Source: Candidatus Latescibacterota bacterium (GTDB lineage Bacteria; Latescibacterota; UBA2968; UBA8231). Taken from it: a stretch of DNA of 64,000 nt. The notes beneath the pieces were generated by a model, which saw only the letters and a program-made list of their open reading frames with translations, was not told where the DNA came from and searched no databases. Shown here piece by piece: positions 5,598 through 50,812 of this stretch; positions within the stretch are counted from its first letter, which is position 1; each line of letters begins with the position of its first letter. The translations under genes were made by a program, and so were the position numbers. The DNA is taken from the NCBI GenBank assembly GCA_965242865.1, contig CBDETK010000013.1:3936001-4000000 (forward strand), written 5' to 3'.

Positions 5598-6605
5598 ATG
5601 GCTATTAGCCGAGAGAACCTGAAAGAACGGTTGGCCGCCTTGCCGCGGTTGCCGCTAGCGGCCCTGCCCACGCCCTTGGAAGCGTTGACGCGCCTCAGCA
5701 CCCACCTAGGCGGCCTCCAGCTTTGGGTCAAGCGCGACGATTTGACCGGCTTGGCCTTTGGCGGCAACAAGATCCGCGAGTTTGAATACCAGATCGCCCA
5801 AGCCGTAGAGCAGGGCTGCGACGTGCTGGTACACTCGGCGGCCGCCCAGTCGAATCAATCGCGGCAGACAGCGGCCGTGGCCGCAAAATTGGGGCTGTCT
5901 GCGGTGATCGTCGGCCGCGACGACGCCCACGCCCAACCGCAGGGGAACCTGCTGTTGACCCACCTCTTTGGCGCGGAGGTGGACCTGCCCGCACCCGAGG
6001 CGCAGGCGCGGGCTGTGGCCGCAAAACTGGCCGCGCTGACAGCGGCTGGCCATCGCCCCTTCCACACCAGCTCGGACGCGCGCATCTTCCGCAGTGTCGC
6101 GTACGTCGATGGGGCGTTGGAGCTCTTGGCCCAATGCGAGCGACAGGGGGTTGAGCCGGCGGCGATTTACCTGTGCTCTGGGGCGCATACCCACGTGGGG
6201 TTGGTGGTGGCGTTTAAGGCGCTGGGCTTGGATATGCGGGTGGTGGGCGTCAGTCCCTCGCCGCGCGACGATCGGCAGGCGGCGAGGGAGCATCTCGCGC
6301 TGGGGCGGGAATGCGCCCAAGTCCTAGGGCTAGACCTTTCGCTGAAGGTGGAGGATTTTGAAAGTTATGCCGCGTTTGCCGGTCCGGCTTACGGCGTCGT
6401 AACCGCCGAGAGTCGCCAAGCACTGCACTTAGTGGCGCAGCAGGAAGGGCTGGTGCTCGATCCGTCTTATACCAGCAAGGCCATGGCCGGGCTGTTGGCG
6501 CACGTGCGCGTCGGTTGGTGGCGTCCCGATCAGACCCTCATCTTTCTCCACACCGGCGGCACCCCCGCGCTTTTTGCTTACGCCAAGGATCTCGGCTACC
6601 TTTGA
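5598..6605 (+). CDS. D-cysteine desulfhydrase / ACC deaminase family PLP enzyme
   Basis: PTPLE, KRDDLTGLAFGGNKIR, QSNQ, LDPSYTSKA, FLHTGG. Confidence 0.93.
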   Translation: MAISRENLKERLAALPRLPLAALPTPLEALTRLSTHLGGLQLWVKRDDLTGLAFGGNKIREFEYQIAQAVEQGCDVLVHSAAAQSNQSRQTAAVAAKLGLSAVIVGRDDAHAQPQGNLLLTHLFGAEVDLPAPEAQARAVAAKLAALTAAGHRPFHTSSDARIFRSVAYVDGALELLAQCERQGVEPAAIYLCSGAHTHVGLVVAFKALGLDMRVVGVSPSPRDDRQAAREHLALGRECAQVLGLDLSLKVEDFESYAAFAGPAYGVVTAESRQALHLVAQQEGLVLDPSYTSKAMAGLLAHVRVGWWRPDQTLIFLHTGGTPALFAYAKDLGYL

Positions 6606-6653
6606 ACTCTTGCTCGCCGGCATTGAACTCAACCTCAATTACAAGGACTAAAT

Positions 6654-8855
6654 ATGACTACAACATCAAACGCCAACGGCGACAATCTGCTTTTCAATAT
6701 CAAGGCAGACCGAGACAAAGAGGAAGCCGATAAAAGGGCGAACGAGGCAATCCAAGAATTGCTCAGCCTGATCGATAAGGACCGCAACGTCGGCGACCTC
6801 ATCAGTATGGACTACGACACCGCGGAGGTGCTGATTCACGACAGACTACGACAGGATGTCGGCGGAGTGCCGCATGGGTGTCTGTTGATCGCCACTAGGA
6901 TAAGGCTAGACGCCGATCCCCCCGACCTCAACGATACTCAAACGTCCCTAATTTTGTTGCGCGCCCTGAAGGCAAGTCCCTTGCCCAACGATATAGAGAT
7001 GAAGCATGCTCGCTTGGAAGCGGGCCAGAGAGCAGCCCACACTTCCGACAATTGGGACGAGGGCGGCAAAACAGATCAGTTTACTTTAGACCAGATGCGC
7101 TATGCCGGGGCGCACTGCCGCATCCTAGGTACTTTTCGCATGAATCTCGATGAGGAAACCAAAAAGTGGAATCTTGAATACGGCGGCGACATAGATAATT
7201 TTTACGCCGGCCAAGGAATGAAGGTTTACAAACTCACTGGAGCCGCATTAGAGCGCATCGCCAATTACACCCTGTGGAAAGGAGCGAGCTCTGAGCCTGT
7301 GGAGATCGGCCAGATTCGCTATGCTGCCTCCATACGCAACTCTGAAACCGTGCCTGTCCGTATGGTCGCCGAGGATATTCTGGCTCAGCGAACTGCCCTG
7401 TTCGGCATGACCCGAACCGGCAAGTCCAACACCACTAAAACCATTGCCAGTGCTGTTTTTCGCCTGCGAACCATGAGAGATAGCCAACGGGTTGGCCAGT
7501 TAATTTTCGATCCTAATGGCGAGTATGCCAATGAAAACCCGCAAGACCAAGGTTGCCTCAAAAACATTGGCAATATCGCTCTTGGTTTAACCGAGGATGT
7601 AATCACCTACGGACTCAACCCGCATCCCAATGATGAGGATCGCAAAATCACCAAGTTCAATTTCTTCGGCAATCTCATACCAAACGATGCCAACAAGGCA
7701 GAACTGGACGAGCAGTTACAGAGCCTTTACCAAGGCAAAGAAATTATCAACGAGGTGCTGCGAGAGGAAGGGGCAGGATATATACAGGCTTTTATACAGG
7801 CTGACGTTGCCGCTCCTGAAAATATAGACGAACGCGGACAATCTGTGCGCTATCGGCGTTCCCTATTCGTGTACCGGGCGATCCTTGCCAAAGCTGGTTT
7901 CAGTTCCGCATGGCAAGGAGTACCGACCAAAGGGCTATTCAGCAAGGATATACGCGACAAGATGCGTAAAGACCCAACCCTTGCTCCATACGTTGACGTT
8001 GAGACTTCGGACAGTGGTAAACCGGACAGTGATAAACCTAAACCTAACACTTTGGACAGTGATAAACCTATGACTTGGGATCGCGCCGGACAGTTCTGCG
8101 AGAGTTTCGCCAAATGGGTCAATACAGACCCATTTAAAGAATTTGACAGAGATTATGCTCGCCGAAAGAATGGACGCCGTTGGAGTGACGATCGTCTGCT
8201 TGGATTGCTCAGCATTTTTGAAAATACTAGGGGGTTGCGCCTAATACAGAAGGCCCAGCAGTGGCACGATGTTGATTACAGCACCGATTATGCTAACGAT
8301 ATCGTGAAATACGTGCGCGAGGGTAAGCTCGTAATCGTGGACCAAGCACTAGGCAGTCCGCAGCTAAACGAACAAGCGTCTAAACGCATTATGAGACAGA
8401 TTTTTGGTGCACAGCAGGAAGCCTTCGTCAACCCGGAGCTCGATGAAAGCACTGGCGAATACAAGAAACCCGCTCCGGTCATCATTTACGTAGAAGAAGC
8501 CCATACCTTGCTACCCAAAGGGAACGAAACCGACACGACAAACATCTGGGCGAGAATCGCAAAAGAGGGTGCCAAATTTAACATCGGCTTGGTCTATTCC
8601 ACACAGGAACCGTCCACAATCCAGACCAACATCTTAAAAAACACCGAAAACTGGTTCATCGCACATCTCAACAATACCGATGAAACCCAACAATTGAGCA
8701 AGTACAACGATTTCGCAGACTTCATTCACAGCATAATCAAAGTGAATGAAACCGGCTTCCTACGAGTCCGTACCTTGTCCAGTCCGTACACCTTGCCAGT
8801 GCAAATCAACAAGTTCACGGCTCCGACGGAGACATCAGATGCCATATCAGAATGA
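6654..8855 (+). CDS. herA: HerA-family (DUF87) ATPase/translocase
   Basis: Walker A GMTRTGKS, IFDPNGEY, Walker B IIYVEEAH, RIAKEGAKFNIGLVYSTQEP; HAS-barrel-like N-terminus; RBS AAGGA. Confidence 0.88.
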   Translation: MTTTSNANGDNLLFNIKADRDKEEADKRANEAIQELLSLIDKDRNVGDLISMDYDTAEVLIHDRLRQDVGGVPHGCLLIATRIRLDADPPDLNDTQTSLILLRALKASPLPNDIEMKHARLEAGQRAAHTSDNWDEGGKTDQFTLDQMRYAGAHCRILGTFRMNLDEETKKWNLEYGGDIDNFYAGQGMKVYKLTGAALERIANYTLWKGASSEPVEIGQIRYAASIRNSETVPVRMVAEDILAQRTALFGMTRTGKSNTTKTIASAVFRLRTMRDSQRVGQLIFDPNGEYANENPQDQGCLKNIGNIALGLTEDVITYGLNPHPNDEDRKITKFNFFGNLIPNDANKAELDEQLQSLYQGKEIINEVLREEGAGYIQAFIQADVAAPENIDERGQSVRYRRSLFVYRAILAKAGFSSAWQGVPTKGLFSKDIRDKMRKDPTLAPYVDVETSDSGKPDSDKPKPNTLDSDKPMTWDRAGQFCESFAKWVNTDPFKEFDRDYARRKNGRRWSDDRLLGLLSIFENTRGLRLIQKAQQWHDVDYSTDYANDIVKYVREGKLVIVDQALGSPQLNEQASKRIMRQIFGAQQEAFVNPELDESTGEYKKPAPVIIYVEEAHTLLPKGNETDTTNIWARIAKEGAKFNIGLVYSTQEPSTIQTNILKNTENWFIAHLNNTDETQQLSKYNDFADFIHSIIKVNETGFLRVRTLSSPYTLPVQINKFTAPTETSDAISE

Positions 8856-10182
8856 ATTTGCCAGAAGCGATTCCCTCTGGCGTCTAATAGAAAGCGAAAG
8901 CGTCCGGGAGTTCCAAGGCATAATCAAACAGAGCGAGGGCCAAGAGCTACACGAACTACCAGCCCGGTTGGAACCACAGCGCGGCATCGGTAGCATAAAG
9001 CGAGTGGTCGCCATTGACGGCTCGACAGTAACCCACAAAGTCAAGAACGGCTATCCGGGCGCTGAGGCAGCCCTATTCAACTTGGCCGCCATAGTCATTA
9101 AGCTACAGGCAATACGCGATGTCTCGCGCAATTACATCCCTAGCCCCAGCGAAATGCGGGATATGGAGCAGTGCGAGACATTGAGTGCCGTATTTCCAGG
9201 CCGTAATATCATAAGGGAAGACGAACCGAACGACTCACCCAAACGGTTCTTCCGGGCGACTATCAGCAAGGAATTGGAGGCACGACTGGACCCGAAACAC
9301 GAGACACTGTTAGAAACATTACGTGCCATAACAACAGACCGATCCGGCGAGATAGACTGCCCACTTGACGACTGTCCGCTTGAGGACCAAAATAAGAAAA
9401 TCACGCTAGAGCAGGGCGATGGCACCTGCAATTGCAGGCGAGGCGAGATCATATACGAGACAGATGCTCTAAGAGCACACGAGCGCTTTGAAGAAAACGG
9501 TTCGAGCGAACAGGCTTTTACCGCTGTCCGTCAAGTGATAGAGCACCTTACTCTAGTGAACATCCTGAGATACTTTGAACGATTCGATAGCCTAGGGGTA
9601 TTCCAAGACACAGCATTTATAATGGACGGTCCTCTAGCTCTGTTCGGTATGCCGGCGTGGCTCAAGCATCACATACAGCGAGAAATTGCCCGCCTACATA
9701 AAAAGGTACAAAGGCATGGCGACCCTGGAATTATCCTGATGGGAATAGAGAAGTCGGGGCAGTTTCTAGATCACCTAGGTGAGTTGGACTATAAAGAAAA
9801 GGAAGGACCTCGGCAGCAGTTGCCTAACTGTACCGCATTAGCACCGGATATAGGATACATCCACAAGCATATCGTGCTACGGCCACCGAACGCCAAGCCA
9901 TATGGAGAAGCGACGTACTACGGGCGTAAGGTGCTGTATAAAAATAAAGCCGGGCAGCACTCAGTAGTAATGACGCCAATAGTGGACGACAAGGGACAAG
10001 ATCTGAATTGTGTCGACGAATCTGCTTATCCTAGAATAGGAGAGGCTCTAGATATTATGGACGAGCTTTCCACCCATCTGTACCGGGACGGCTTCGCACC
10101 GCTAGTGCGGGCACATGCTCATGCTGCCATCCCGCTCAAAACCGGCAGCAGAGTTTTAGAGAGGATATTCAGCGAGCAATGA
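8839..10182 (+). CDS. nurA: NurA-family nuclease
   Basis: VVAIDGS, FIMDGPL, GIEKSG and C-terminal AHAHA match NurA catalytic motifs; ATG 8839 after GGAG overlaps the herA end. Confidence 0.82.
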   Translation: MPYQNEFARSDSLWRLIESESVREFQGIIKQSEGQELHELPARLEPQRGIGSIKRVVAIDGSTVTHKVKNGYPGAEAALFNLAAIVIKLQAIRDVSRNYIPSPSEMRDMEQCETLSAVFPGRNIIREDEPNDSPKRFFRATISKELEARLDPKHETLLETLRAITTDRSGEIDCPLDDCPLEDQNKKITLEQGDGTCNCRRGEIIYETDALRAHERFEENGSSEQAFTAVRQVIEHLTLVNILRYFERFDSLGVFQDTAFIMDGPLALFGMPAWLKHHIQREIARLHKKVQRHGDPGIILMGIEKSGQFLDHLGELDYKEKEGPRQQLPNCTALAPDIGYIHKHIVLRPPNAKPYGEATYYGRKVLYKNKAGQHSVVMTPIVDDKGQDLNCVDESAYPRIGEALDIMDELSTHLYRDGFAPLVRAHAHAAIPLKTGSRVLERIFSEQ

Positions 10183-11327
10183 GACAACAATACGCCAAGC
10201 TGACAGCACCCCATCAACCGAAATATGGCACTGCAGCGAGTCGCTGGGCCGGCATCGGTCCTTATTATGCAATGTTCCCAACCGAGTTTGCTGATGCTGT
10301 TATAAGCAAATATACCCGTCTTGGCGAAACTATCCTCGACCCATTCGCCGGCCGTGGTACTGCCATATTCAGTGCCGCCATTCAGCAGCGTCCAGCCATC
10401 GGTATCGAAATCAGTCCCCTAGGCTACGTGTATGCTAACGCTAAACTCAAACCTGGGGACTACAAAAGAGTAGTACGAAAACTTGAAAAGCTGGGTGAAA
10501 CCGCTCACTTATATCGCTCAGAGGCGAATAACCTCCCACCATTTTTTCACCATTGCTTCGCTCCCGGAGTACTCGAGTTTCTAATCGCCGCCCGCGAAAA
10601 GTTGAAATGGAAACACGGGAGAGATGATCGAACTCTAATGGCCATCATTTTAGTATCACTGCATGGTAAACGGCTCCAGTCCCTGTCCAATCAGATGCGC
10701 CAGAGTACCTCAATGGCTCCCGATTACTGCATCCGCTGGTGGACAGAAAAAAATCTCGCCCCACCAAATATCGACCCAGTCGAGTTTTTCACCAAGCGCA
10801 TTAAATGGCGCTATGCAAAAGGAATACCCCAAACTGAAGATGCCATAGTCCACCTAGGCGACAGTATTAAAAAATTACCTCAGTTAGCCCGATATATCCA
10901 AAAACGCCAACAGTCCCAAATAAAACTCCTCATTACTTCTCCTCCCTATAGTAATGTTACAAATTACTACTACGACCAATGGCTCAGATTATGGCTATTA
11001 GGTGGTCCAGAATATCCCGGCAAACATGGTGATCTATATGGAGGAAAGTTTAGCAACTCCGAACGGTATTATCAATTACTCAACCGAGTCTTCGCTAGAG
11101 CGAAACGTATCCTTGCGAACGATGCTATTATCTACATCAGAACCGATCTCAGAGAGTCAACTCTCCATACCACACGGGCTGTTTTGAAAGAAACGTTCCC
11201 CGAAAAACACATCACCGATGAGATAGAACAACCCCTGAATCCTGCTCGTCAAACTAGACCGTACAGCCGCGGTGGAGCACCAAAAAAAGCCAATTGCGAA
11301 GTGGATATCATCCTAGAACCTCGGTAG
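10179..11327 (+). CDS. Amino-type DNA methyltransferase (SPPY, probably N4-cytosine)
   Basis: PYYAMFP, motif I ILDPFAGRGT, motif IV LITSPPY; ATGA overlap with nurA. Confidence 0.85.
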   Translation: MRQQYAKLTAPHQPKYGTAASRWAGIGPYYAMFPTEFADAVISKYTRLGETILDPFAGRGTAIFSAAIQQRPAIGIEISPLGYVYANAKLKPGDYKRVVRKLEKLGETAHLYRSEANNLPPFFHHCFAPGVLEFLIAAREKLKWKHGRDDRTLMAIILVSLHGKRLQSLSNQMRQSTSMAPDYCIRWWTEKNLAPPNIDPVEFFTKRIKWRYAKGIPQTEDAIVHLGDSIKKLPQLARYIQKRQQSQIKLLITSPPYSNVTNYYYDQWLRLWLLGGPEYPGKHGDLYGGKFSNSERYYQLLNRVFARAKRILANDAIIYIRTDLRESTLHTTRAVLKETFPEKHITDEIEQPLNPARQTRPYSRGGAPKKANCEVDIILEPR

Positions 11328-11365
11328 CTATATGCACTGCCTTCGCATCCCGTGTACACGGGGCT

Positions 11366-11389
11366 GTGGATTACATAGACTATCATTGA
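11366..11389 (+). pseudogene. Last codons of a HigB (RelE-type) toxin gene
   Basis: gtg gat tac ata gac tat cat tga = VDYIDYH*, the typical HigB C-terminus, just upstream of higA. Confidence 0.6.
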
Positions 11390-11403
11390 TAGGGAGTGGA
11401 AAT

Positions 11404-11703
11404 ATGGCAATGCACGATCCTCCGCATCCGGGTGGAATCGTTCGACGGCAGTGTCTTCAGCCGCTTGGTCTGTCCGTGACACAAGCGGCGGTAGGGCTGG
11501 GCGTATCTCGTCAGATGCTGTCCGATCTGGTAAACGAGCGGACGGGCATCTCGACCGAGATGGCCATTCGCCTATCTAAGGCGTTCGGCTCTACGCCGGA
11601 GACTTGGCTCGGAATGCAAATGGCCTATGATCTCTGGCAAGCCCGCGAACGCGCCGAGCAGATTGAGAGCGAGGTATTTGAGATGCCGGCACCGGGCCAC
11701 TAA
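11404..11703 (+). CDS. higA: HigA-family antitoxin (XRE HTH)
   Basis: PPHPG..LGLSVTQAA..LGVSRQ..ISTEMAIRLSKAFGSTPETWLGMQ; RBS GGGAG. Confidence 0.92.
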   Translation: MAMHDPPHPGGIVRRQCLQPLGLSVTQAAVGLGVSRQMLSDLVNERTGISTEMAIRLSKAFGSTPETWLGMQMAYDLWQARERAEQIESEVFEMPAPGH

Positions 11704-11728
11704 GTGGCCGGAAGCATTCGCACCGCGA

Positions 11729-11775
11729 GTTCGTGAAATGGGGCCTCTCTCAAACGGAGACCCCATTTTGCGAAC
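11729..11775. other. Long imperfect hairpin downstream of higA (possible terminator)
   Basis: GTTCGTGAAATGGGG ... CCCCATTTTGCGAAC; no U-tract. Confidence 0.4.
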
Positions 11776-11898
11776 AGACAGCACACAGCGTATCATTTTC
11801 AGCTTACTAGATGCCCACAATCCCGGACGCATCGGGAACACCAGCTAGGTGTCGCGTCCTTTAACAGCGTCAGCACCCGACAGACTCTCTAACGAACC

Positions 11899-12699
11899 AT
11901 GACCTTCGCCCTGCCGTTTATCACTGCCCTCGTCTCCGGGCTTTACACGTGCCTGTGGGGCGCGTTCAAAGACGCGCCTTACGAGGGATTCAAACCCAAG
12001 ACCTTTCCGCGCAGCATCTACTTCCACCTCGCAATTTTTTTGCCGTTGTATTTCGTCCCGTATTTCAGCGCACAATTCCAGCATCTTGGTCTCGTGCAAA
12101 CATTCTTCCTGATCATGGGCCTAGAGCGCTTTCTCGCCGAAATCTACAAGGGCTTCTTCCGCACGGAAGACCAGCAGAAGTACTTCGTTCCCTCGCGCAT
12201 TACCTTCTTTGGCCGCCCGGTCACCAGCGACTTCCTCCGCTATAGTGCGGGCGGTCTAATCGTCGCCATTGTCTTTGCCTTCTTGCTCGTCGCCGTGCCC
12301 GTCAAGAGCTTCTGGGCCTATCTGGCGACCGGGTATTGCACCGGGCTGCTCGTGGCCTTGGGCGGTGCTTATAAGGACGCGCCCTTCGAGGGATTCAAGT
12401 GGCTCAAATTCCAGCGCTCTGGGGTCGTCTTGGCCGCCCTGAGTCCGCTGTTTTACTTTCTCGGCAATCCCGAACACCCGGTCGGCTTGGGTTTTCTCAT
12501 TTACATGAACGGCGGGCTAGAGCGATTCACCGTCGAGTACTACAAGACTTACATCCAGCGCAATATGTCCGGGAAATTCCAACCCAACCTGCCCAGAATT
12601 CAGCGAGAATTGGACACCCGCGAAAAGTTCCACTACGCGGCCTTGGCGATCATCGCCGGGCTGGCCGCGCTCTACGCCTATGAACGCGGCGCACTATGA
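11899..12699 (+). CDS. Hypothetical multi-pass membrane protein with internal duplication
   Basis: GAFKDAPYEGF/GAYKDAPFEGF and GLERFLAEIYK/GLERFTVEYYK; hydrophobic helices. Confidence 0.8.
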   Translation: MTFALPFITALVSGLYTCLWGAFKDAPYEGFKPKTFPRSIYFHLAIFLPLYFVPYFSAQFQHLGLVQTFFLIMGLERFLAEIYKGFFRTEDQQKYFVPSRITFFGRPVTSDFLRYSAGGLIVAIVFAFLLVAVPVKSFWAYLATGYCTGLLVALGGAYKDAPFEGFKWLKFQRSGVVLAALSPLFYFLGNPEHPVGLGFLIYMNGGLERFTVEYYKTYIQRNMSGKFQPNLPRIQRELDTREKFHYAALAIIAGLAALYAYERGAL

Positions 12700-14167
12700 C
12701 GCAGTGGTCATTGGCTCCGGGTTCGGCGGCTCGCTGGTGGCCCACGCGCTGGTGCAATCCGGGCTAAAGACCGCGCTGCTAGAGCGGGGCCAATGGGCCA
12801 AGCGCGACGACGCAGACTGGGATCAGCGCACCATCCTGCTGCAAAAACGCTACGGCGCGGCCTCGCCCCTTTTGGTCAAGCAGTACGGCCGTCGCACCTT
12901 CCAGCGCGTCTATCCCAACGAAGTCGTCGGTGGCAACTCCGTCTTTTACGGCGGGGCGTCGCTGCGGTTGCGGCCGGCGGATTTTGCCCGCTGGCCCTTT
13001 TCCTATGCCGAGCTAGCCCCTTATTACGCCCGCGCCGAGCAGCTTCTCGGGGTACACGGAGAGGTGGGGACCGACCCCTACCAACCCCCGGGGTTGGTGG
13101 CCTATCCGCGCCGCGCTGTTGAGCTGAGTACACCGGCCCAGCGCATTTACCAAGCGGGGACGGACTTGGGGCTGCGGCCGTTCAAAATTCCGCTGGCGAT
13201 CAATTTTTCCGACCGCACCCGCCCTCTCTGCCTGCGCTGCATCACCTGCGATGGCTTCCCCTGCAAGGTGGAGGCTAAAAACGACCTGGCTTCCACTGTG
13301 CTGGCTGCGGCTGTGGCCGCCGGGCTGGAGATCGTCGTCGGCGCGGTGGCGCGGCGGTTGGTGCAGCGGGGGGGGCGCGTCGAGCAAGTCGAATACGTGG
13401 ACAGCACCTCCCGACAGGTCCACGCGCTCTCGGCCGACTTGGTGGTCTTGGCCGCTGGGGCACTCAACAGCCCGGCCCTGATGCTGCGCTCGGGATTCGA
13501 CCACCCCCTGATTGGGCGCTTTCTCATGCGCCATTGCAATGGGGTTGCCTGCTGCATCTTCCCCTTTCGCACCAACCCGCAACAGGTCTTCCACAAACAA
13601 CTCTGCTTTTCCGATTTCTACGAAGACCGGCGCGCGGAATTTGGCACGGCCGTGGGCGTCATCCAAGACATCTACACCCCGGCGCCCGCCATCATCCGGC
13701 ACCACACGCCTTGGGGCCTCAAAACCCTCGCCGGGCTGCTGGCCAGCCGCATGCAGAGTTTGCTCTGCATTGCCGAGGACGACCCGCGCCGCGAAAACCG
13801 CATGTCGTTGGCTGACGAGCGGGACATTTTCGGCTTGGAACTGGTACAAATAGAACACGCGTACAGCGACGCCGACTGCGGTCGCCGCGACCTTTTGCTG
13901 GCCAAGGCAGAGGCCGTATTGCGCCAAGCGGGCGGCCTGCTGCGCTACCGCTACCGGATCGATTCCTTCTCGCACGCCGTAGGCACCCTGCGTTGCGCCA
14001 CTGCGCCCGAGGAAGGCGTCCTCAATGCGGATTGTCGCTATTGGGGCAGCGACAACCTCTACGTATCCGACGGCAGCTTCATGCCGTCTTCGGGCGGAGT
14101 AAATCCAAGTTTGACGATTGCGGCCAATGCCCTGCGGGTCGCCGAGCGGATATTGGAGAAGCCATGA
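12680..14167 (+). CDS. GMC-family flavin oxidoreductase
   Basis: VIGSGFGGS, VVGGNS, CLRCITCDGFPC, HAVGT, VNPSLTIAANALR. Confidence 0.92.
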   Translation: MNAAHYDAVVIGSGFGGSLVAHALVQSGLKTALLERGQWAKRDDADWDQRTILLQKRYGAASPLLVKQYGRRTFQRVYPNEVVGGNSVFYGGASLRLRPADFARWPFSYAELAPYYARAEQLLGVHGEVGTDPYQPPGLVAYPRRAVELSTPAQRIYQAGTDLGLRPFKIPLAINFSDRTRPLCLRCITCDGFPCKVEAKNDLASTVLAAAVAAGLEIVVGAVARRLVQRGGRVEQVEYVDSTSRQVHALSADLVVLAAGALNSPALMLRSGFDHPLIGRFLMRHCNGVACCIFPFRTNPQQVFHKQLCFSDFYEDRRAEFGTAVGVIQDIYTPAPAIIRHHTPWGLKTLAGLLASRMQSLLCIAEDDPRRENRMSLADERDIFGLELVQIEHAYSDADCGRRDLLLAKAEAVLRQAGGLLRYRYRIDSFSHAVGTLRCATAPEEGVLNADCRYWGSDNLYVSDGSFMPSSGGVNPSLTIAANALRVAERILEKP

Positions 14168-21377: not shown

Positions 21378-22955
21378 ATGCTACGGATAGACCCCGATTC
21401 GCCCCGGACCGCCAAGCGTAAACTGCCCATCGGCATTCAGACCTTCCGCACGATTCGGGAAGAAAATTGCTACTACGTCGATAAGACCGCTTACATGGCG
21501 CGGCTGGTCGCCGAGGGTACGCACTATTTCCTGTCGCGTCCCCGTCGGTTCGGCAAGAGTCTGTTTCTCGATACGCTCAAGGAGCTGTTCGCCGGCAACG
21601 AGCCGCTGTTTCAGGAGCTGGCCATTCACCCGCGATGGGACTGGTCGGTGCGCCATCCGGTGCTGCGGCTCGACTTCAGCAGCGGCAACTTTAAGGAGCC
21701 AAGCTACCTACACAAAGATGTAATGGCCCAGCTAGACGCTATGGAGCGCGAGTCGGGGGTCGCTGCCAACTACGACACCGCACCAGCCCGCTTGCGCCAT
21801 TTGCTCAAGGTGCTGCATCAGCGCACCGGCCAGCGGGTGGCCGTGCTGATCGACGAGTATGACAAGCCCATTCTCGACGCGCTCGAAGTGCCGGAGGTCG
21901 CCCGTGCCAACCGCGACTACTTGCGGGGGCTGTATGCGACGATCAAGTTTGGCGACGCCCACATCGCGTTCACCTTCCTCACCGGGGTGAGCAAGTTCTC
22001 CAAAGTCAGCTTGTTCTCCGGCCTCAACAATCTCAAAGACATTACCTTAGACCCGCGCTACTCGGCCATTTGCGGCTACACTGAGGCGGACTTGGACGCG
22101 GTGTTCGCCGCGGAACTGCCCGGCTTGGACCGCGAAGCAATCCGCACGTGGTACAACGGCTACAACTGGCTGGGCGACGAGGCCGTGTACAACCCCTTTG
22201 ACGTATTGCTGCTGTTTGACCGCCGCCAGTTCGGGCCGTACTGGTTTGAGACGGGAACGCCGACGTTTCTGCTGGAGATGTTGTTGGCGCGCGGGGTCAG
22301 TGCGCTCTCCTTGGACGACATGCTCGGCAGCGAGGAGTTGCTGTCGTCGTTTGACGTGGACCACATTGCGACCGAGGCGTTGTTGTTCCAGACCGGCTAC
22401 CTGACCATTCGGTGCGCCGAGTTGCGCGGCGGGCGGATGTACTACCGGCTGGGCTACCCCAATCGGGAGGTGCAGCAAAGCCTGAACGATAGCTTGCTGA
22501 GTCACCTGACGGGCAATTCGTCGCGCCGGGTTGAGCACAGTGCCCGGCTCTACGATCTGCTGCTGGTCAACGACTTCGATGGCTTGGAAACGCTGTTCGA
22601 GGCGTTCTTTGCCAGCATTCCCTATCAGTGGCATACGAATAATGAGATCGCCCACTACGAGGGCTATTACGCCAGTGTGTTTTACTCCTACTTCGCGTCG
22701 CTGGGGTTGTCGATTACGGTGGAGGACAGCAGCCGGGAGGGACGCCTCGACATGGCGGTGGAGTTCAATGGAAACGTGTACCTGTTCGAGTTCAAGGTGG
22801 TAGATCAGGCGTCGGCGGGGGCGGCGATCCGGCAGTTGAAGGAGCGGGACTATGCGGCCAAGTATCGCGGGCGCGGCGAAGCGATTTTCCTGATTGGAGT
22901 GGAGTTCAGCCGAGAGACCCGCTCCGTAGCCGCCTTTGAGGTGGAGAGTACGTGA
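21378..22955 (+). CDS. AAA-ATPase-like + PD-(D/E)XK nuclease domain protein
   Basis: LPIGIQTF, YYVDKT, SRPRRFGKS, LIDEYDKP, GRLDM..FEFK. Confidence 0.92.
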   Translation: MLRIDPDSPRTAKRKLPIGIQTFRTIREENCYYVDKTAYMARLVAEGTHYFLSRPRRFGKSLFLDTLKELFAGNEPLFQELAIHPRWDWSVRHPVLRLDFSSGNFKEPSYLHKDVMAQLDAMERESGVAANYDTAPARLRHLLKVLHQRTGQRVAVLIDEYDKPILDALEVPEVARANRDYLRGLYATIKFGDAHIAFTFLTGVSKFSKVSLFSGLNNLKDITLDPRYSAICGYTEADLDAVFAAELPGLDREAIRTWYNGYNWLGDEAVYNPFDVLLLFDRRQFGPYWFETGTPTFLLEMLLARGVSALSLDDMLGSEELLSSFDVDHIATEALLFQTGYLTIRCAELRGGRMYYRLGYPNREVQQSLNDSLLSHLTGNSSRRVEHSARLYDLLLVNDFDGLETLFEAFFASIPYQWHTNNEIAHYEGYYASVFYSYFASLGLSITVEDSSREGRLDMAVEFNGNVYLFEFKVVDQASAGAAIRQLKERDYAAKYRGRGEAIFLIGVEFSRETRSVAAFEVEST

Positions 22956-38428: not shown

Positions 38429-41400
38429 ATGAACGCAGACTCACTTATGTCACAAAACCCAATCATCTGGATCAACGAGTTCCTGCACCGCCGAGGCCTG
38501 GATAGCCCGGATGGGCGAGCATTGTACGCCTACCGATGCACAGCTACCGAGTTCGACTCGCTGGCCGAGGTGCTCTCGCATAGCACTCCTGACAGTGCCA
38601 CAAATGGGGAAACTCGCGCATTTGTACTCTACGCGGCGGAGTGGTGGCAGCGACGATACGACGGGCACCATTGGGCTTGGGAACCGTTATTACGTCCATT
38701 AAGTGGCACATCCACTATCCCGATCTCTATGAGCCTGTACGCGTAGCTTTGCGCTGGTGGCAGGTCGATCTTGTGCGTCTGCCGACTTCGATTCGCTATC
38801 TCGGCACATTCGCCTGTCAAGGCGGCCTGCCGTTGGGTCTCGTCGGCGACGCAGACAGCAGGGTTGCACAGTACCTACGCGCTGTTCTTAAACACACCGC
38901 TGAGTATTGGAAGTTCGTTGATGATGCCATCGATCTGGCACGCGACCAGCAGCACCTGCTGCACCCGCCGACGCTACGTAGGGATTATGTGTTCCGCCTA
39001 GCAGCCGACCTAATTGAGGCGGTGCGCGACCTCCAGAACGATGCTCAAGGAGAAGATCCAATCAGCACCCTTGACCGGGTGCGTCCGGGTTGGTGCAAAA
39101 CCATGCCGCTAGCTATCGAGAATGAGCGGGCGCGAGACCTTCTAATCAGCCTGCTTCACGAAGCGGTGCAAGTCAGGCCTCCAGCCGATGACTTCCGCGT
39201 CGAGCGGTTTCTGCGTAGAACCAGTGTCGGATGGCGGCTCGGTGCCCGGATCCGGCTTCCCGCATCCATTTCGGCGAAACATCTCGAACATTACCTAAAC
39301 GTGTCGGAGGGAGACCTGCCATCTAGGCTGCAAGTACGTGTACATGGCGATCGCGTACGCAATGTCGGACTGTACGCTGCCGAGTTAGACAACTTCCTCT
39401 TAGTAGCACGAGACACACAATCCCAAACTGAAATCTGGGATACCGAAGCCGCCGCCGAGATTCGGCTTCAGTTCCTCTCCGGGGATGTGGTTGGCGAAGG
39501 AGTGGTTCCCTACCGAGGCACCTCCTTGGGAGAGTTGCCATGGGCGTTCCGGGGCGATTCCAATGAATGTCCCTTCATTGGCGAAGGCAGTGTCAGCAAC
39601 CGTGCATCGGAGATCGTCGTGTTAGCCCCGACAGATTGTACTACAGACCACGAGAGCGCGTTGGAGTCGTCTTTGGCGGGAGAGAGCGAGGGACTTGAGC
39701 CATTTGGACGAATTCTGTGGAGGATCACTGAATCGACCGCGATTAAAACAGTTCACGGGCGGTGCGTGGTAAGGCCATCTTCGGGGCAAATGGTCGAGGA
39801 AGACTACTGGCTGGAGGGTCAGCGATGCTACGATTTAGAATCTGTTCGGCCGTTGTCGTTGTTCTGCGGCACACCGAGGTTGCGCGTCGCCAAGGCCGAG
39901 CAGGACCCGCGTACCGTACCGACCAATGAGGTCAGTTGGCGGCAAACGGGAGGAGAGTGGCAACAACGTCCCAATACCTCTGGATTGTGGGAAATCCGGC
40001 ATATACGCGGTGGAGAGCTTCGGTATCTTAGCCGCGTTGGCATCCTTCCCGAACAATTCCGCTTGTCGCTCGCTTCCGGTTCGGACATGAGCGAAGGGTA
40101 TTTGATGTTGGACGGAGCGGAAGCTGTAAAGGTTTCGGCTCACAGCCAAGAAACCGTGGTGACGCCGCGAATTGAAGGAAACGGAGTTCGGGTCCACGTG
40201 GCCACCCGAAATGCGGCTACCCCGCCCGCGCACATGCACCTTCGCTTGCATTGGCAGGGGGCCGCGGGACTGGTCGTGCAGGTGCCCTTCCCTGGACACG
40301 GGGGGCACTTCCTGCGGGACGACAAGCCCTTGGACCGGGAACTTGTCGTTGATGATCTCTACGGGGTGCGGGCGATCGCACTGTCGCCGAATGACTCTCG
40401 GAAATTCTGGATCCGAGGTGAACTCAAGGCACTGGATCCGGATCTGGGTAGTAGTCTGCTTCTCGTCGCGCACTTCCGTCTTCCGCTGCGTAAGTCTGGC
40501 GTGACACATGAACTTCCGCTTATTGATTTGCGCTCCATGGTTCAACTGCTACTCTCTTCATCGTCGTCCGGCGAGGCGAGCGTTGCCCTGCGTATCGTGG
40601 ACGAGTTCCAGCATGAGTACGATGCCGTTCGAGTCAACCGATTTGCAGACACGCTTGAATATGACCCTAGCATGACCTTCGTCACTGCGCCGCTGACATC
40701 GAATGGCGATGAACCTGTGACCTTTGAAGCCGTGCCACTCGCTCGGCCAGATGCCGATCCTGTGTCTCTCGATGTCGTCAGTCCGGCCAATGCCCCGCAC
40801 GGTGCCGCATTGCCGCAAGACCTGAACATCAATGAACCTTGGTTAGTAGTAGCGCACCACGACGACCAGGTGCGTGTCCGGCCCGTTGTCATTGGTGGCA
40901 GGTCAGGCGAATCAGTTAGTTCGTCAACAGGGGACGCGGAGGTTTCCCGTTTATGCGAAGCCGTGAGCCTGCGCGATTACGATTCGCGGATACGATCCAT
41001 TGCCGCAGCAATGGACGCCATGTTGGACCCGGAAAATGCACACCGCGTTGAAGAAGAATGGGGCTTCCTAAATTATTCGTTGCTGCGTACCGAGGGGCTT
41101 CCAGCAACATCGCTCGACCTTCTCAAGGTTCTGGTGAAGAAACCGAGTCTCCTAGTTCGTTGCATGTTCCGGCTCGAAAGCGCACCTCGACAATTGCTCT
41201 GGCGACTGGAAGACGAACTGCCGTTTAGTTGGCTTCTGATCCAGCGTCAGGTCTGGTGGACCGAGGCTAGGCAGGCGTTCGAGCGACTCCGCGGTCAGAT
41301 GGCCGACATGCCGGACAGCAATCAAATCGCTAGCGATTATGTAAATTCGATTCTCACCGAAGGTGTCAAAGGTATCCGTCAGCTTCAGGGTTTATATACC

Positions 41401-41808
41401 GTGAAGTGTGACATCGGCTTTCGGTTAAATGGGGGCAGAATCCCCGGTCCGATTGTTGAGGAGGCTCGTAAGAAGCGGGACGCCAAGACCCAAGAGCAAC
41501 TCAATCTGCGATACAGCATGGAAGACTGGCCGCCAGGAGACGGGCGTAGCGAGTGGGCGGAAGAGCTTGAGCAAGGTGAGCTACTCAACAACCTCGCCAT
41601 CTGGCAACGCGAAGGCGACTCCCGAGAACGCCAACCCATTTTCGACACTCCTGTTGCCGCCGCATGGTGCTGTTTTCACTCCAAACCCACCGACCGCACG
41701 ACATTTCTCGTCAAACGCATTCGTACGCACGACCCTGAGTGGTTTGATTTAGCGTATGAAGCCGCTTGGTTCCAGCTAGCACTCAGACAGGACGAATCCA
41801 ACCGATGA
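38429..41808 (+). pseudogene. druH: DruH-like (STY4851/ECs_5259 family) protein split by a 1-nt frameshift near 38690
   Basis: PDGRALYAYRCT..FVLYAAEWW..WAWEP continues in another frame as TSIKWH..YLGTFACQGGLP; ATGA-coupled to the helicase. Confidence 0.72.
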
Positions 41809-47800: not shown

Positions 47801-47903
47801 CGAGCAAGTGCATTCCCTGAACAAAATCGTCGAGACTCGGAAGGTCGTCGCCCAAGGCAACCACCCGACATACGTTTACATCACCAAGGAGCCATCCGAA
47901 TAG
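41805..47903 (+). CDS. druE: Large DEAH helicase with DUF1998 domain (DruE-like, Druantia type III)
   Basis: GTGSGKT, YPLNALINSQ, VLDEAH, TSAT, FSDSRQ, QRAGRAGR, LYDAATGGNGY..C..CDAACHGC; about 2030 aa. Confidence 0.85.
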   Translation: MTETISISNLIQDLSTRSGRAILSQLGLRSPALRKYLASLYAQEPGEPGALLADPMLEAAFGWKVADVDMQGLVRSGLLRQDLVSAMSKPRREYREYAFPCRRHPFRHQLDCWKLLLKDVPHSVLVASGTGSGKTECFLVPILEDLARERATAGALTGARALFLYPLNALINSQRDRLRAWCNGFDNDIRFCLYNGETPETAPAHEQMRAGAEQISRQALRDAAAPVLVTNSTMLEYMLVRTEDQPILERSRGKLRWIVLDEAHTYIGSQAAEMALLLRRVLHRFEVDSASVRFVATSATIGDAEAKEDLQCFLADISGAPADRVHVVTGDHFVPSLPPLGPSQTEETLDGLPAGPLYDALCHDPAARSIRARMAKEPVSLGALQEESGLDFETVTALLEKASTARREDEAFLPLRVHLFHRAQHGLWACVNASCNGRDAALGDGWAFGALFPQRRTHCEHCCYPVFELVVCVECGQDYLSAEEKISGETGEQKLTPYIEEVGVDEFQLEIDPGEDDEEEPSTLSVIRRLICGPSFDEEQIEEWHLNQDQTLSKDSDGVPLRLSPIETGPMTCPRCGGRDNRRRLFRELRIGAPFALSTIVPTALEYTPPMRSGAKLPSQGRRLLGFSDSRQGSARLAVRLQQEAERNRVRSVLYHALAAERKTIDTSELERQIAELQRVDSPALRPILEQKKAELAQARAASSTGTLAWGDAVKRLIGDASLRRMHQYFQETSYIKPTLEEFANFCLYREFFRRPKRMNSAETMGLISLRYPALEGKTAPSGWPLQPEDWSVFLKLVLDFFMRDVSAVDVEDGYLRWMGIPVQKRYVQGPGFDRELTQRQRLWPSMRSGRRPSRMPRLLRQAAGLDDSPSSKDRINEVLEHAWTALRPYLQPVGDGYLLKLREIAGLSELSSGEICPYTARVLDATLNGLSPYLPERGEPEYCQQFKPPRVPKAYWRDSSGREADREEIAEWLETDPQVQQVRDLGVWSNLNDRIVANTQYFEAAEHSAQLDGDRLRGLEQRFKDGDLNVLSCSTTMEMGVDIGGLSAVIMNNAPPSSTNYLQRAGRAGRRGEGVSFAVTLCPSSPHGEQVFNNPLWPFTSKPGIPRVALDSERLVQRHVNSLCLGAFLNGRDVRRLKTGWFFQHDESSGSVPGWQFVEWCRTEAETDRRLVQGLRQLIQGTALATAETTQLLNASSIALAQALTAWQGEVKALRKDAAQFEDGSPAVLAIKHQLRRLEGEHLLRELANRQFLPGYGFPIGVVSFVPITIEALKRRQSNREDREEAFGKRLGYPSRQMEMAIREYAPGAEVVMDGRVYESSGVTLNWHIPPSVESVNEVQALRHVWHCRECGTTGDNHSPPDRCPQCDGAVTPRKYLEPAGFAVDIRHSPHNNVVTPTYIPVESPWISCPTPEWTPLADPHIGRFRYTDSGHLFHGSGGVGHHGYAVCLRCGRAASEVGPPSETVLPEVFRDGHSRLRGGKNLDGSSQCDGTGFTIQRGLWLGGSRITDVFELQLAGLNEEATALSLGIALRRAFCRHLGIEEEEVGVTIRQSKSADSAIQQSIFLYDAATGGNGYVAALRDHIALALQKSVAVLNCVKKCDAACHGCLLTFDTQYDSAKLDRHKAQEFLTSECLNGLSLNERDRLLGPDSRVLTRPLFRHLLEVAGETDVEEIRLWMGGAPDSWDVEDFPLYRDVLRWGDDHRQVRLIIAPATWNGLSEGNRHSLAALVTAGRGCIEVHHTPAPTAHLASGQVIATAGGTRRHVAWATSNENTMPMNETWGQSPGDAQTVFARIAGPLPPLQTDAVSINQLRPQPDSTVENLPIQKELDGPTKGFGSRFWTHIHNHCSPLKEQFGGGLLTRVSYCDRYLATPWGVLLLREVLLRLVREGWADSRTALRLFTRKLQRDLRPRRDGQSISGQWQNDADRKLFFEQSINTGRGRLGWNGPFTFKTGDAPHFRELRLEWETGDIWTLKLDQGLGYWRCRPSTDFPFEEQPHEQVHSLNKIVETRKVVAQGNHPTYVYITKEPSE

Positions 47904-50645: not shown

Positions 50646-50812
50646 TTTGCTAACATCCTTTATCGTTTTGCATGGATAATAGCCGAATTGGGACAAAGTT
50701 TCAAGTAGGGCCGCTCTTCTTTTATTATATTGAGACGCACCCCAACGGCGTCGCCGCGCCCCACCTGCGCGGCCGATAAAGCAAGGGTCGCATACTTAGG
50801 CATTGGAGCACT

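Follow-up and report, generated by a model that had tools for sequence, protein, structure and literature searches.

A horizontally mobile HerA–NurA–methyltransferase cassette related to TdpAB: a candidate methylation-gated, restriction-like defence system

In a 64,000-nucleotide stretch of a Candidatus Latescibacterota genome (the window), three co-oriented, overlapping genes occupy positions 6654–11327 of the + strand, encoding a HerA-family ATPase (ORF 6654–8855, 733 aa), a divergent NurA-fold nuclease (ORF 8746/8839–10182) and a circularly permuted N6/N4 DNA methyltransferase (MTase; ORF 10179–11327, 382 aa). The ATPase and nuclease genes overlap by 17 nt, and the nuclease and MTase genes by the 4 nt of an ATGA junction. 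The layout agrees with the initial annotation of this DNA, as do the composition and the flanks described there: the cassette is GC-poor at 0.497, the DNA upstream having 0.625 and that downstream 0.623, and the upstream neighbour is a PALP-family PLP enzyme (5598–6605; PF00291, 8e-39). Downstream, outside the system, lies a higA antitoxin gene (11332–11703, + strand, likely start 11404; TIGR02607, 1.4e-32). A "broken higBA" module is the right description, since higB is reduced to its last approximately seven codons (11366–11386), located by tblastn with the intact higB of another cassette locus, L019. The HigA-like ORF does not recur beside the cassette elsewhere (3 of 75 related loci by tblastn), and further defence genes in the window are 27–50 kb from the cassette.

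The ATPase (6654–8855, + strand) is a TdpA-like protein of the HerA/FtsK clade and of hexameric type, according to Pfam, PADLOC, PDB profile and AF2/Foldseek comparisons. It passes the cut-off of Pfam DUF87, the HerA central domain (41 bits against 23.2), and scores 71 bits with the generic HerA model of PADLOC, the HerA models of which span 29–71 bits. The ATPase family profile matches TdpA in the PDB with 100 bits (E 1.1e-27), every other solved ATPase reaching at most 53 bits. The AF2 model (pLDDT 83.6) retrieves six TdpA chains as the best Foldseek matches (E 1e-23 to 3e-21), followed by SIR2-HerA and DUF4297-HerA; there are 147 PDB matches at E ≤ 0.001, and all among the matches listed are chains of HerA-family ring ATPases. 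Identity to TdpA is only 16–17%. The Walker A motif GMTRTGKS (aa 251–258; 7404–7427, + strand) retains G251, G256, K257 and S258 in 50 of 50 intact cassettes, and the Walker B motif VIIYVEEAH (aa 609–617; 8478–8504, + strand) likewise retains E614 and E615. A TQE triplet (aa 650–652; 8601–8609, + strand), also kept in 50 of 50, provides, as the conserved Q following strand 4, a candidate for the sensor-1 Gln, which a passage of PMC10853773 names as a feature of the HerA/FtsK clade. A low-complexity tandem-repeat insert (8001–8078, + strand), with direct repeats of 15–30 nt at 8009–8070, ranks lowest in conservation of all blocks in the ATPase (0.18), and pLDDT falls to 59 there. Assignment to a canonical HerA equivalog was rejected: the NCBIfam models NF040819, NF040937, NF042943 and NF042944 give 39–60 bits, those of repair HerA 56–60 bits, against cut-offs of 800–970, placing the ATPase on a separate branch of the HerA family.

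The nuclease (447 aa; 8839–10182, + strand) has its true start at the ATG at 8839, since all 120 listed homologues are approximately 440–450 aa long and align from residue 1. Against Pfam NurA (PF09376), it scores 14.1 bits (E 0.032), under the gathering cut-off of 21 bits; hence, its identity had to come from transitive homology and structure, and the NurA assignment of the initial annotation holds by homology, motifs and fold, but not by the Pfam threshold. Among 30 close family members, 12 match Pfam NurA at E < 1 (best 0.0012). Seven of 64 divergent members exceed the cut-off, and NurA, matched at E < 0.01 by 15 of the 64, is the sole recurring Pfam family; the best scorer, P0134, combines 49.2 bits to NurA with a full-length match to the nuclease family profile at E 3e-94. 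Furthermore, a Tolypothrix homologue reaches 23.7 bits and carries the RefSeq name NurA. The best PDB match of the broadened nuclease profile is TdpB, at a marginal E of 0.028 with no single stretch significant, the alignment being co-linear over the N-terminus and motifs I–III. The AF2 model (pLDDT 78.7, pTM 0.82) likewise retrieves TdpB first in Foldseek (E 1.5e-6, probability 1.00, modest TM of 0.43/0.52), followed by six NurA structures, including those of Deinococcus (5e-4) and of Thermotoga (TM1739), Thermococcus, Pyrococcus and Sulfolobus (2e-3 to 7e-3), and beyond these by Argonaute PIWI and EndoV. The model thus adopts the NurA (RNase H-like) fold. Overall, the ATPase and the nuclease share only 13–17% identity with TdpA and TdpB.

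The nuclease opens with MPYxxE (8839–8856, + strand), in which M1 and P2 are invariant and Y3 and E6 are kept in at least 90% of 30 sequences. This segment aligns with residue 1 of TdpB, has low pLDDT in the monomer model and may act as an interface. A passage of PMC13748450 gives the NurA motifs as I (..xDG), II (..DG) and III (LxxAHxxxA), and VVAIDG (residues 56–61), FIMDG (260–264) and LVRAHAHAA (422–430) conform to all three definitions. In motif I, VVAIDGS (9004–9024, + strand), D60 and S62 are kept in 50 of 50 cassettes and G61 in 48; in motif II, FIMDGP (9616–9633, + strand), D263 and G264 in 50 of 50; and in the motif III region, LVRAHAHAAIP (10102–10134, + strand), A425 and A429–P432 in 49 and H428 in 41 of 50. 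The motif III region has low pLDDT in the monomer model, and its final position is I, not R/H/K. In addition, four cysteines (C174, C179, C197 and C199; 9358–9435, + strand), three of them kept in 50 of 50 and C197 in 49, are situated in a segment of approximately 77 aa without a counterpart in the TdpB alignment (pLDDT 82–86). Relatives of the nuclease give zinc-finger Pfam matches, and the Cys4 cluster probably represents a zinc-ribbon insertion within the NurA fold.

The MTase (10179–11327, + strand) is assigned by PF01555 (56.3 bits against a cut-off of 26.7), by the PADLOC model MTase_II PDLC03325 (4.6e-21 over aa 29–314) and by profile comparison with the PDB. The protein is circularly permuted, with motif I preceding motif IV; the PDB comparison pairs its N-terminus with the C-terminal part of beta-class MTases, and its C-terminus with their N-terminal part. 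The SAM-binding motif I, DPFAGRGT (10338–10361, + strand), keeps D54, P55, F56, G58 and R59, and the catalytic motif IV, TSPPY (10935–10949, + strand), all five residues, in 50 of 50 cassettes, in agreement with the family patterns FxGxG and (D/S)PP(Y/F). SPPY is compatible with m4C or m6A formation, and the nearest solved relatives are of both kinds, comprising the m4C enzymes 8s9n and PvuII and the m6A enzymes CcrM, MboIIA and RsrI. The catalytic motifs of all three proteins (GMTRTGKS, VIIYVEEAH, the NurA DG, DPFAGRGT and TSPPY) are thus intact, as first described, and are invariant in the 50 intact cassettes. The MTase also has no other cognate endonuclease beside it, as had been claimed; a classical Type II R-M system was rejected, the sole nuclease being an ATPase-coupled NurA-fold protein and not a sequence-specific endonuclease.

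A set of approximately 186k species genomes holds 75 related loci, spread over at least 13 phyla; 72 of these keep the order HerA–NurA–MTase on one strand (tblastn), the three exceptions being one contig edge and two decayed remnants. The initial annotation had named as contrary outcomes a core, vertically inherited herA–nurA pair and a pair rarely found beside this MTase, and neither describes these loci: the linkage is obligate, and the tree calls for 20 changes of phylum label where 10 would be the minimum. The NurA-to-MTase junction overlaps by 1 to 8 nt in 42 of 50 cassettes. No gene other than an MTase holds the third place in any of the 75 loci, no other neighbour recurs, and no fourth gene is conserved, the best flank cluster being a generic ABC transporter in 9 of 76 loci. 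In 46 of 49 loci the cassette has a lower GC content than its flanks (median difference −0.066), and 132-nt direct repeats flank the island in L019. The cassette is a self-contained, horizontally mobile unit. Also in keeping with mobility, R-M/TA-type genes account for 13 and transposase or resolvase genes for 5 of the 137 nearest neighbours. Many neighbours are housekeeping genes, so that the surroundings do not constitute a classic defence island.

More distant relatives vary in their arrangement, yet some of them show that the partnership of the three genes is conserved over great evolutionary distance. A haloarchaeal plasmid keeps the order HerA–NurA–MTase with an MTase of the same family at 26–29% identity, and a Deferribacter megaplasmid has the order MTase–HerA–NurA. 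Plasmids of Tolypothrix, Nostoc and Calothrix carry HerA–NurA relatives without an MTase, with DEDDh exonuclease partners on the cyanobacterial plasmids, showing that the nuclease pair can occur without the methylase. In a temperate Vibrio phage, HerA–NurA is located between int and xis; the MTase there is Dam-class, matches PD-Lambda-5_B and may be unrelated to the pair. Only two longer fused forms were found, both HerA with NurA and none NurA with MTase.

Each gene of the cassette evolves with a dN/dS of 0.11–0.12 (window against L019). HerA and NurA co-evolve (r 0.94), and the MTase is decoupled from them (Spearman 0.33). MTase classes, set post hoc from the same data, undergo two or more switches when mapped on the HerA+NurA tree (AU p 0.016) and require only 10 changes against a shuffled mean of 29.9. 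The whole MTase genes exchanged are only approximately 39% identical, no segment of HerA or NurA was found to track the MTase class, and in three closely related pairs the dS of the MTase exceeds that of HerA 2- to 9-fold. Decay is asymmetric: of 18 decayed cassettes visible over their full locus, 13 lost HerA and/or NurA and kept an intact MTase, and none lost the MTase alone. HerA alone is inactivated in 11 of 76 loci. The decay statistics rest on 12 single-gene cases, and frameshifts called in metagenome-assembled genomes may be assembly errors.

By sequence and structure alike, no solved protein is closer to the ATPase than TdpA, or to the nuclease than TdpB, and this kinship makes the cassette a variant with a precedent. 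TdpABC is a PT-based R-M-like defence of thermophiles, with its gene roles set out in a passage of PMC12914056 (citing An et al. 2025, Nat Chem Biol 21:1160). Both clusters consist of three genes, one DNA-marking gene with a ring ATPase and a nuclease, and the nuclease shares with TdpB the MPY..E opening and three co-linear NurA motifs. In the PDB entries 8wet, 8wfd and 8y1k, 18 TdpA and 6 TdpB chains are present (6:2 each), which is the HerA6–NurA2 ratio. However, the marker here is an N6/N4 base MTase instead of the PT-synthesising single-gene TdpC, and the cassette was therefore not filed as a Tdp system. Compared with TdpA and TdpB, the ATPase is approximately 150 aa longer and the nuclease approximately 70 aa longer, with the additional Cys4 insert, and the hosts are mesophile-type uncultured lineages.

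Among other systems, SIR2-HerA (Nezha) and DUF4297-HerA (Hailibu) also employ a HerA-family ring ATPase as effector scaffold and motor, but their effectors are SIR2 or the Cap4-like DUF4297 and they lack a modification gene, the cassette having NurA and an MTase instead. The PADLOC HerA systems (SIR2-HerA, DUF4297-HerA and MADS) were rejected since their partners are absent, with no SIR2, DUF4297 or mad1–7 beyond generic MTase similarity; the sole other match to the eight MADS genes is to the generic mad8 P-loop (7e-14). Type I, Type III, Type ISP and BREX/DISARM/MADS systems similarly combine MTase self-marking with a DNA motor that runs on ATP and with a nuclease or other effector. In contrast to the SF2 helicase and PD-(D/E)XK nuclease of ATP-dependent R-M, the motor here is a HerA/FtsK-clade ring and the nuclease has the RNase H-like NurA fold, and neither an S nor a Res subunit is present. 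DndFGH and the "HerA/FtsK capture" systems also deliver invader DNA to a nuclease by a HerA/FtsK pump, but the capture systems have REase-fold nucleases and Orc/Cdc6, D5 helicase or PglZ partners, as far as the main texts of PMC10853773 and PMC12839542 go, where the term NurA does not appear. A literature search found no description of the HerA–NurA–MTase trio. The nuclease is not covered by any model of PADLOC-DB 2.0 and gave no match at E < 0.01 in the window and four distant loci, and the ATPase obtains only weak generic HerA matches there; the view that the trio is not a named system stood to that extent, but had missed TdpAB as the closest relative.

Taken at somewhat better than even confidence, the cassette is a methylation-gated, Tdp-like, R-M-like defence system with a TdpAB-type engine. 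The MTase would mark host DNA at its recognition sites. The ATPase would assemble a HerA/TdpA-type ring, presumably in an A6B2 complex with the nuclease, translocate on duplex DNA with ATP and feed it into a NurA/TdpB-type nuclease dimer for degradation. By analogy with TdpAB, the translocation of which is reportedly blocked by PT, the methyl mark would halt or disable the translocase-nuclease, so that methylation would protect the host and only unmarked invading DNA, such as that of phages, would be processively destroyed. The nuclease module probably lacks any intrinsic sequence specificity that would have to agree with that of the MTase. The restriction-like reading first proposed for the locus thus gains in substance, since operon coupling, purifying selection, MTase exchange and MTase-sparing decay fit an R-M-like logic. 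HerA-type rings such as TdpA grip DNA by its backbone, which suits the sensing of a backbone PT and makes the reading of a base methyl non-trivial; no methyl-mark reader domain was identified in the cassette.

Alternatively, the MTase may be a physical subunit of HerA–NurA that confers sequence recognition, as in Type I and Type III systems, its binding to an unmethylated site recruiting or licensing the translocase-nuclease. The ATGA-type translational coupling of NurA and MTase in most cassettes, the inheritance of the trio as a unit indicated by the few MTase class changes, and the need for another source of specificity when HerA and NurA contain no specificity-tracking segment speak for such an arrangement. 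Nevertheless, MTases as divergent as those exchanged, without change in HerA or NurA, are hard to fit to a conserved interface, the MTase is upstream in Deferribacter, and, as weak evidence, neither fused form joins NurA to the MTase; this reading is considered unlikely.

A selfish addiction module, in which HerA–NurA attacks the chromosome as methylation dilutes (post-segregational killing) with little protection from phages, would match the patchy horizontal spread, the foreign composition, the fact that decay never takes just the MTase, and the toxin-antitoxin remnant adjoining the cassette in the window and in L019. Addiction is, however, compatible with defence, classical R-M systems doing both, and the inactivation of HerA alone offers an easy escape. 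Moreover, the HerA–NurA pair of the temperate phage occupies the accessory int–xis region, the usual site of defence cargo, rendering pure addiction rather improbable.

A methylation-independent HerA–NurA, similar to SIR2-HerA and DUF4297-HerA in which HerA senses infection, with the MTase as an accessory for protection from other nucleases or for regulation, is very improbable. The MTase-less cyanobacterial relatives and the exchangeability of the MTase lean in its direction, but the MTase keeps its position in 72 of 75 loci, recurs in the archaeal plasmid, and retains its catalytic motifs throughout and its gene through decay.

Housekeeping end resection or repair with a merely neighbouring methylase, as suggested by the HerA–NurA complex of archaea and Deinococcus/Thermus, with which the cassette shares both folds, NurA motifs I–III and adjacent overlapping genes, is scarcely credible, given that the cassette is sporadic, mobile across phyla, MTase-coupled, furnished with the Cys4 insert, far below the repair-HerA equivalog cut-offs, more akin to TdpAB, a defence complex, than to repair HerA–NurA of any kind, and unlinked to mre11/rad50, the claimed absence of which was borne out in 41 other window ORFs (of 45 non-overlapping ones of at least 150 aa; Pfam, E ≤ 1e-6) and among recurrent neighbours.

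Returning to the methylation-gated reading, if it is true, restriction by a HerA-type pump and NurA would be a broader design, not confined to PT-modifying thermophiles and driven also by ordinary base methylation, and present not only in 13 or more bacterial phyla but also on an archaeal plasmid and in a temperate phage. The R-M repertoire would gain a distinct architecture, in which a ring translocase replaces the SF2 motor and an RNase H-fold nuclease replaces PD-(D/E)XK, raising the mechanistic question of how a backbone-gripping ring senses a base methyl. More tentatively, and with less than even expectation, a general "plug-in" restriction class may exist, in which a processive, sequence-blind TdpAB-like engine senses a self mark in transit and the marking enzymes are interchangeable, PT in Tdp and base methylation here; the cassette would then be the first methylation-gated member, and methyl marks would be read during translocation by a novel kind of reader, either the Cys4 insert or the enlarged insert of the ATPase. 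For annotation, there is reason to drop the labels "DUF87", "hypothetical" and "DSB repair nuclease NurA" for the genes of the trio, which forms a compact three-gene system suited to experiment.

The cassette consists of three genes on the + strand: a HerA-family ATPase (6654–8855, 733 aa), a NurA-type nuclease (8839–10182, 447 aa), and a DNA methyltransferase (MTase; 10179–11327, 382 aa), which overlap by 17 nt at the ATPase/nuclease junction and by 4 nt at the nuclease/MTase junction. The nuclease is read from a corrected start; the listed start at 8746 is too early, since the homologues are about 440–450 aa long and, among the matches listed, 120 of 120 align from residue 1 of the product starting at 8839. 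The GC content of the cassette is 0.497, compared with 0.62 on either side. A PALP-family gene, encoding a PLP enzyme, lies upstream and HigA lies downstream, with higB reduced to about seven codons, and neither Mre11 nor Rad50 is found among the 41 other window ORFs of at least 150 aa that were scanned (of 45 non-overlapping). Hence, the ORFs, the GC content, the flanks, and the absence of Mre11/Rad50 are all as described in the initial annotation, which had reported three overlapping, co-oriented, AT-richer genes between a PLP enzyme and a broken higBA module, apart from mre11 and rad50. A search of the island for an integrase or a tRNA gene finds none, and promoter and terminator scans return chance levels (7 hits where 5.2 are expected and 5 where 6.8 are, respectively). 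At 11899–12699, a predicted membrane protein of 266 aa without a Pfam match contains an internal duplication (a 58-nt direct repeat, 71%, with 405 nt spacing); its gene is still within the region of reduced GC (0.56), and no counterpart exists in L019, the locus most closely related to the window copy.

The ATPase matches Pfam DUF87, the HerA central domain, at 41 bits, the PADLOC HerA models at only 29–71 bits, and the NCBIfam HerA equivalogs at 39–60 bits against cut-offs of 800–970; it is a HerA-family member outside all named branches. A search of the PDB with the ATPase sequence by itself already places TdpA, the ATPase of the TdpABC system, first. A 39-sequence ATPase profile searched against the PDB scores 100 bits with TdpA (E 1.1e-27), compared with at most 53 bits for SIR2-HerA, DUF4297-HerA, archaeal HerA, and the rest. 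In the AF2 model of the ATPase (pLDDT 83.6), TdpA chains form the six best structural matches (E 1e-23 to 3e-21), followed by SIR2-HerA (3e-19) and archaeal HerA (1e-18). The helical insert of the ATPase contains an Asp/Ser/Lys/Pro-rich, low-complexity tandem repeat with units of 15–30 nt (8001–8078), which is the least conserved block of the protein; the ATPase of L019, with 720 aa, is 13 aa shorter than the window copy.

The nuclease scores 14.1 bits against Pfam NurA, under the cut-off of 21, gives only noise against the PDB with phmmer and with a 30-sequence profile, and has no matches in NCBIfam or PADLOC. An exhaustive profile search gathers a family of 724 cluster representatives. Among 64 divergent full-length representatives, 15 match NurA at E<0.01, seven of them above the Pfam cut-off (best 49.2 bits), and no other family recurs. 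All three NurA motifs, as set out in a 2026 review (PMC13748450), are present, and the DG residues are invariant. The AF2 model of the nuclease (pLDDT 78.7, pTM 0.82) matches TdpB first (E 1.5e-6), then six solved NurA nucleases, and thereafter Argonaute PIWI and EndoV, which are known fold relatives. The divergent-member Pfam matches, the three motifs, and the structural matches of the model therefore assign the nuclease to the NurA type; together with DUF87 in the ATPase, they uphold the HerA–NurA identity that the initial annotation had given to the pair. RefSeq also applies the name NurA to two of the five plasmid homologues examined. Furthermore, when the nuclease profile is broadened to 50 sequences, its best PDB match is TdpB (E 0.028), in the same entries as TdpA, along four co-linear stretches comprising the N-terminal MPY..E opening and motifs I, II, and III. 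Thus, two adjacent genes independently select both subunits of one solved complex. Within the otherwise confident nuclease monomer model, pLDDT falls below 50 only at aa 1–14 (8839–8880), where the N-terminus is invariant, and at aa 413–436 (10075–10146), in the conserved region of motif III; this would be consistent with segments that gain order only through dimerization or docking to the ATPase ring.

The MTase scores 56 bits with PF01555, and its residues 29–314 align with a PADLOC model for Type II MTases. A 45-sequence profile shows the domain order to be circularly permuted relative to beta-class enzymes: the MTase N-terminus aligns with their C-terminus, and the SPPY region with their N-terminus. 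Its solved relatives comprise both m4C and m6A enzymes, so that the modification it makes may be either.

A scan of one genome per species, across about 186k species, returned 75 loci, and the order seen in the window is kept in the homologues: the three genes lie on one strand in the same order in 72 of the 75 (tblastn). Of the other three, L070 is a match at the edge of a contig, and L041 and L074 are remnants of decayed cassettes. The catalytic motifs, which had looked intact in the window copy, are conserved throughout, with Walker A, Walker B, TQE, both NurA DG motifs, DPFxGRG, and TSPPY present in 50/50 intact cassettes; in the Cys4 cluster of the nuclease, three cysteines occur in all 50 and the fourth in 49. 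Between the window copy and L019, dN/dS is 0.12, 0.12, and 0.11 for the three genes. Clustering of 761 flanking ORFs yields no fourth conserved gene, the best cluster being an ABC transporter at 9 of 76 loci. Neither of two longer matches is a NurA–MTase fusion. In locus L029 (7865–11326), an ORF of 1159 aa (P0271) appears to fuse HerA and NurA through a frame change near the HerA end; the fusion is either genuine or due to misassembly.

The partnership is retained in remoter relatives at 23–32% identity. A haloarchaeal plasmid carries DUF87, NurA-like, and MTase genes in this order, the MTase belonging to the same family, and a Deferribacter megaplasmid carries the order MTase, DUF87, NurA. 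On the latter (pDF308, L077, 1967–5765), the HerA-like DUF87 gene is interrupted by an IS200/IS605 tnpA–tnpB insertion, a further case of an inactivated ATPase, with the MTase and NurA annotated as whole. In a temperate Vibrio phage, a HerA and NurA-like pair lies between the integrase and the excisionase and adjoins an opposite-strand Dam-class MTase matching PD-Lambda-5_B, which may be unrelated to the pair. On Tolypothrix-type plasmids, the pair is accompanied by a DEDDh exonuclease and lacks an MTase, and this variant may represent a distinct system around the same translocase–nuclease pair. One such locus (L076, 3626–10537) encodes an HTH regulator, DUF87, NurA, a small ORF, and an 816-aa DEDDh-exonuclease protein; the MTase-less variant also occurs on Nostoc and Calothrix plasmids.

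The cassette is mobile. The 75 loci span at least 13 phyla, and the phylum label requires 20 changes on the HerA+NurA tree (minimum 10). The copy in the window nests among those of Chloroflexota, and the sequence flanking it is 87% identical to that of a Latescibacterota genome. In 46 of 49 loci, GC is lower in the cassette than in the flanks (median −0.066). Unrelated housekeeping genes make up most of the 137 nearest neighbours, among which are also 13 proteins of restriction–modification (R-M) or toxin–antitoxin type and five transposases or resolvases. In L019, higBA and the cassette form an island of 5.66 kb (7092–12753), on either side of which 132 nt of the PALP 3′ end stand as a direct repeat. 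In the window (6606–11703) and in L019, the cassette stands beside the same PALP gene, with flanks 87% identical; however, higA lies on opposite sides of the cassette as the result of a rearrangement, L019 having an intact higBA upstream, and the window, unlike L019, lacks both the 132-nt repeat and higB. Neither island contains a recombinase.

For pairs of cassettes, the identity of HerA closely follows that of NurA (Pearson 0.94), whereas the MTase is decoupled from both (Spearman 0.33). The MTase classes mostly track the cassette tree, with 10 changes where 8 is the minimum and the shuffled mean is 29.9. Two pairs of classes are interleaved on it, and a single origin of the class found in the window is rejected by an AU test at p 0.016, for a group chosen after the tree was seen. 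The classes differ along the whole protein, with about 39% identity between classes, compared with 54–60% within a class across different cassette clades; therefore, genes have been replaced rather than having diverged fast. Among 40-column segments of HerA and NurA, none tracks the MTase class: the maximum, +0.08 at NurA 169–191 in the Cys4 region, is within the noise of the other segments, compared with +0.12 to +0.31 along the MTase itself. Synonymous divergence increases along the cassette in three close pairs, from 0.38 in HerA to 0.74 in the MTase in one, from 0.11 to 0.72 in another, and from 0.19 to 1.80 in the third, which fits recombination at the MTase end. A decay census of 76 loci (the 75 and the window) counts 51 intact cassettes and seven cut by contig ends; HerA alone is broken in 11, NurA alone in one, HerA and NurA beside an intact MTase in one, HerA and MTase in two, all three genes in three, and the MTase alone in none. 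Against a length-proportional expectation, the MTase takes 0/12 single-gene hits (p about 0.03) and HerA 11/12 (p about 0.002), counts in which assembly errors of metagenome-assembled genomes could inflate frameshifts, without bias to one gene.

As far as sequence analysis reaches, the fixed trio, the MTase exchange, and the decay pattern support the restriction-like interpretation of the initial annotation. According to PMC12914056 and a table of PMC13223576, tdpABC is a three-gene, phosphorothioate (PT)-based R-M-like system whose mark is made by tdpC alone. The solved Tdp complex is deposited as 6 TdpA : 2 TdpB per entry, which equals the HerA6–NurA2 ratio. An et al. (2025) are said to have found that PT on self DNA inhibits translocation and cleavage by TdpAB. 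Compared with Tdp, the position of tdpC is held here by a base methyltransferase, and in the alignment TdpB lacks the Cys4 insert of the nuclease. By analogy, the MTase would mark self DNA, and a TdpA-like hexamer would translocate along DNA and deliver it to a TdpB/NurA-like dimer; the mark would halt the machine on self DNA, and DNA without the mark would be degraded processively. Conjecturally, the methyl mark might be sensed by the Cys4 insert of the nuclease or by the enlarged helical insert of the ATPase. The free swapping of MTases without change in HerA or NurA argues for a nuclease engine that has no sequence reader matched to the MTase. In the main rival explanation, the MTase would belong to the complex as its specificity subunit, in the manner of Type III systems; the same exchange counts, less strongly, against a conserved MTase–nuclease interface. 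A housekeeping repair role of HerA–NurA is rejected on account of the lack of mre11/rad50 among the scanned window ORFs and the recurrent neighbours, the sparse distribution with transfer between phyla, the low scores against the HerA equivalogs, and a closer match to TdpAB than to any repair HerA–NurA. A MADS reading fails, with a generic mad8 P-loop match only and seven partner genes missing.

The initial annotation had not recognized the trio as a named system, and neither does PADLOC-DB 2.0 (2023), which holds no nuclease model matching the window or four distant loci; a full-text literature search likewise found no description of a HerA–NurA–methyltransferase system. The term 'NurA' is absent from the main texts of PMC10853773 and PMC12839542, which treat 'HerA/FtsK capture' by comparative genomics. 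In the deposited Vibrio phage record, only the MTase is noted as an R-M component, HerA bears a Pfam-style note, and the NurA-like gene bears none. The 2026 review describes distant bacterial NurA-like sequences as of unknown significance and bacterial nurA as without stable synteny (PMC13748450); this absence of synteny does not hold for the NurA family of the cassette.

The window also contains a Druantia type III pair at 38641–47903, in which DruH3 (1055 aa, no Pfam match, PADLOC 6e-77) precedes DruE3 (2045 aa, DEAD/Helicase_C/MZB, PADLOC 2143 bits). At 61966–63848, a HindIII-type Type II R-M pair comprises RE_HindIII (PF09518, 5.6e-108) and an overlapping beta-class N6_N4 MTase (1.2e-40). 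Together with the cassette, these two pairs bring the number of defence systems in the window that target DNA to at least three, separated by tens of kb. Two solitary ATPase genes encode AAA-ATPase_like with PDDEXK_9 (21378–22955, no PADLOC match) and AAA_14 with DUF4143 (49491–50696), both types being frequent in mobile or defence contexts.

The specific kinship with TdpAB is what the present analysis adds to the restriction-like view, and the cassette is proposed, from its sequence, to be a Tdp-type translocase–nuclease restriction module coupled to base methylation.
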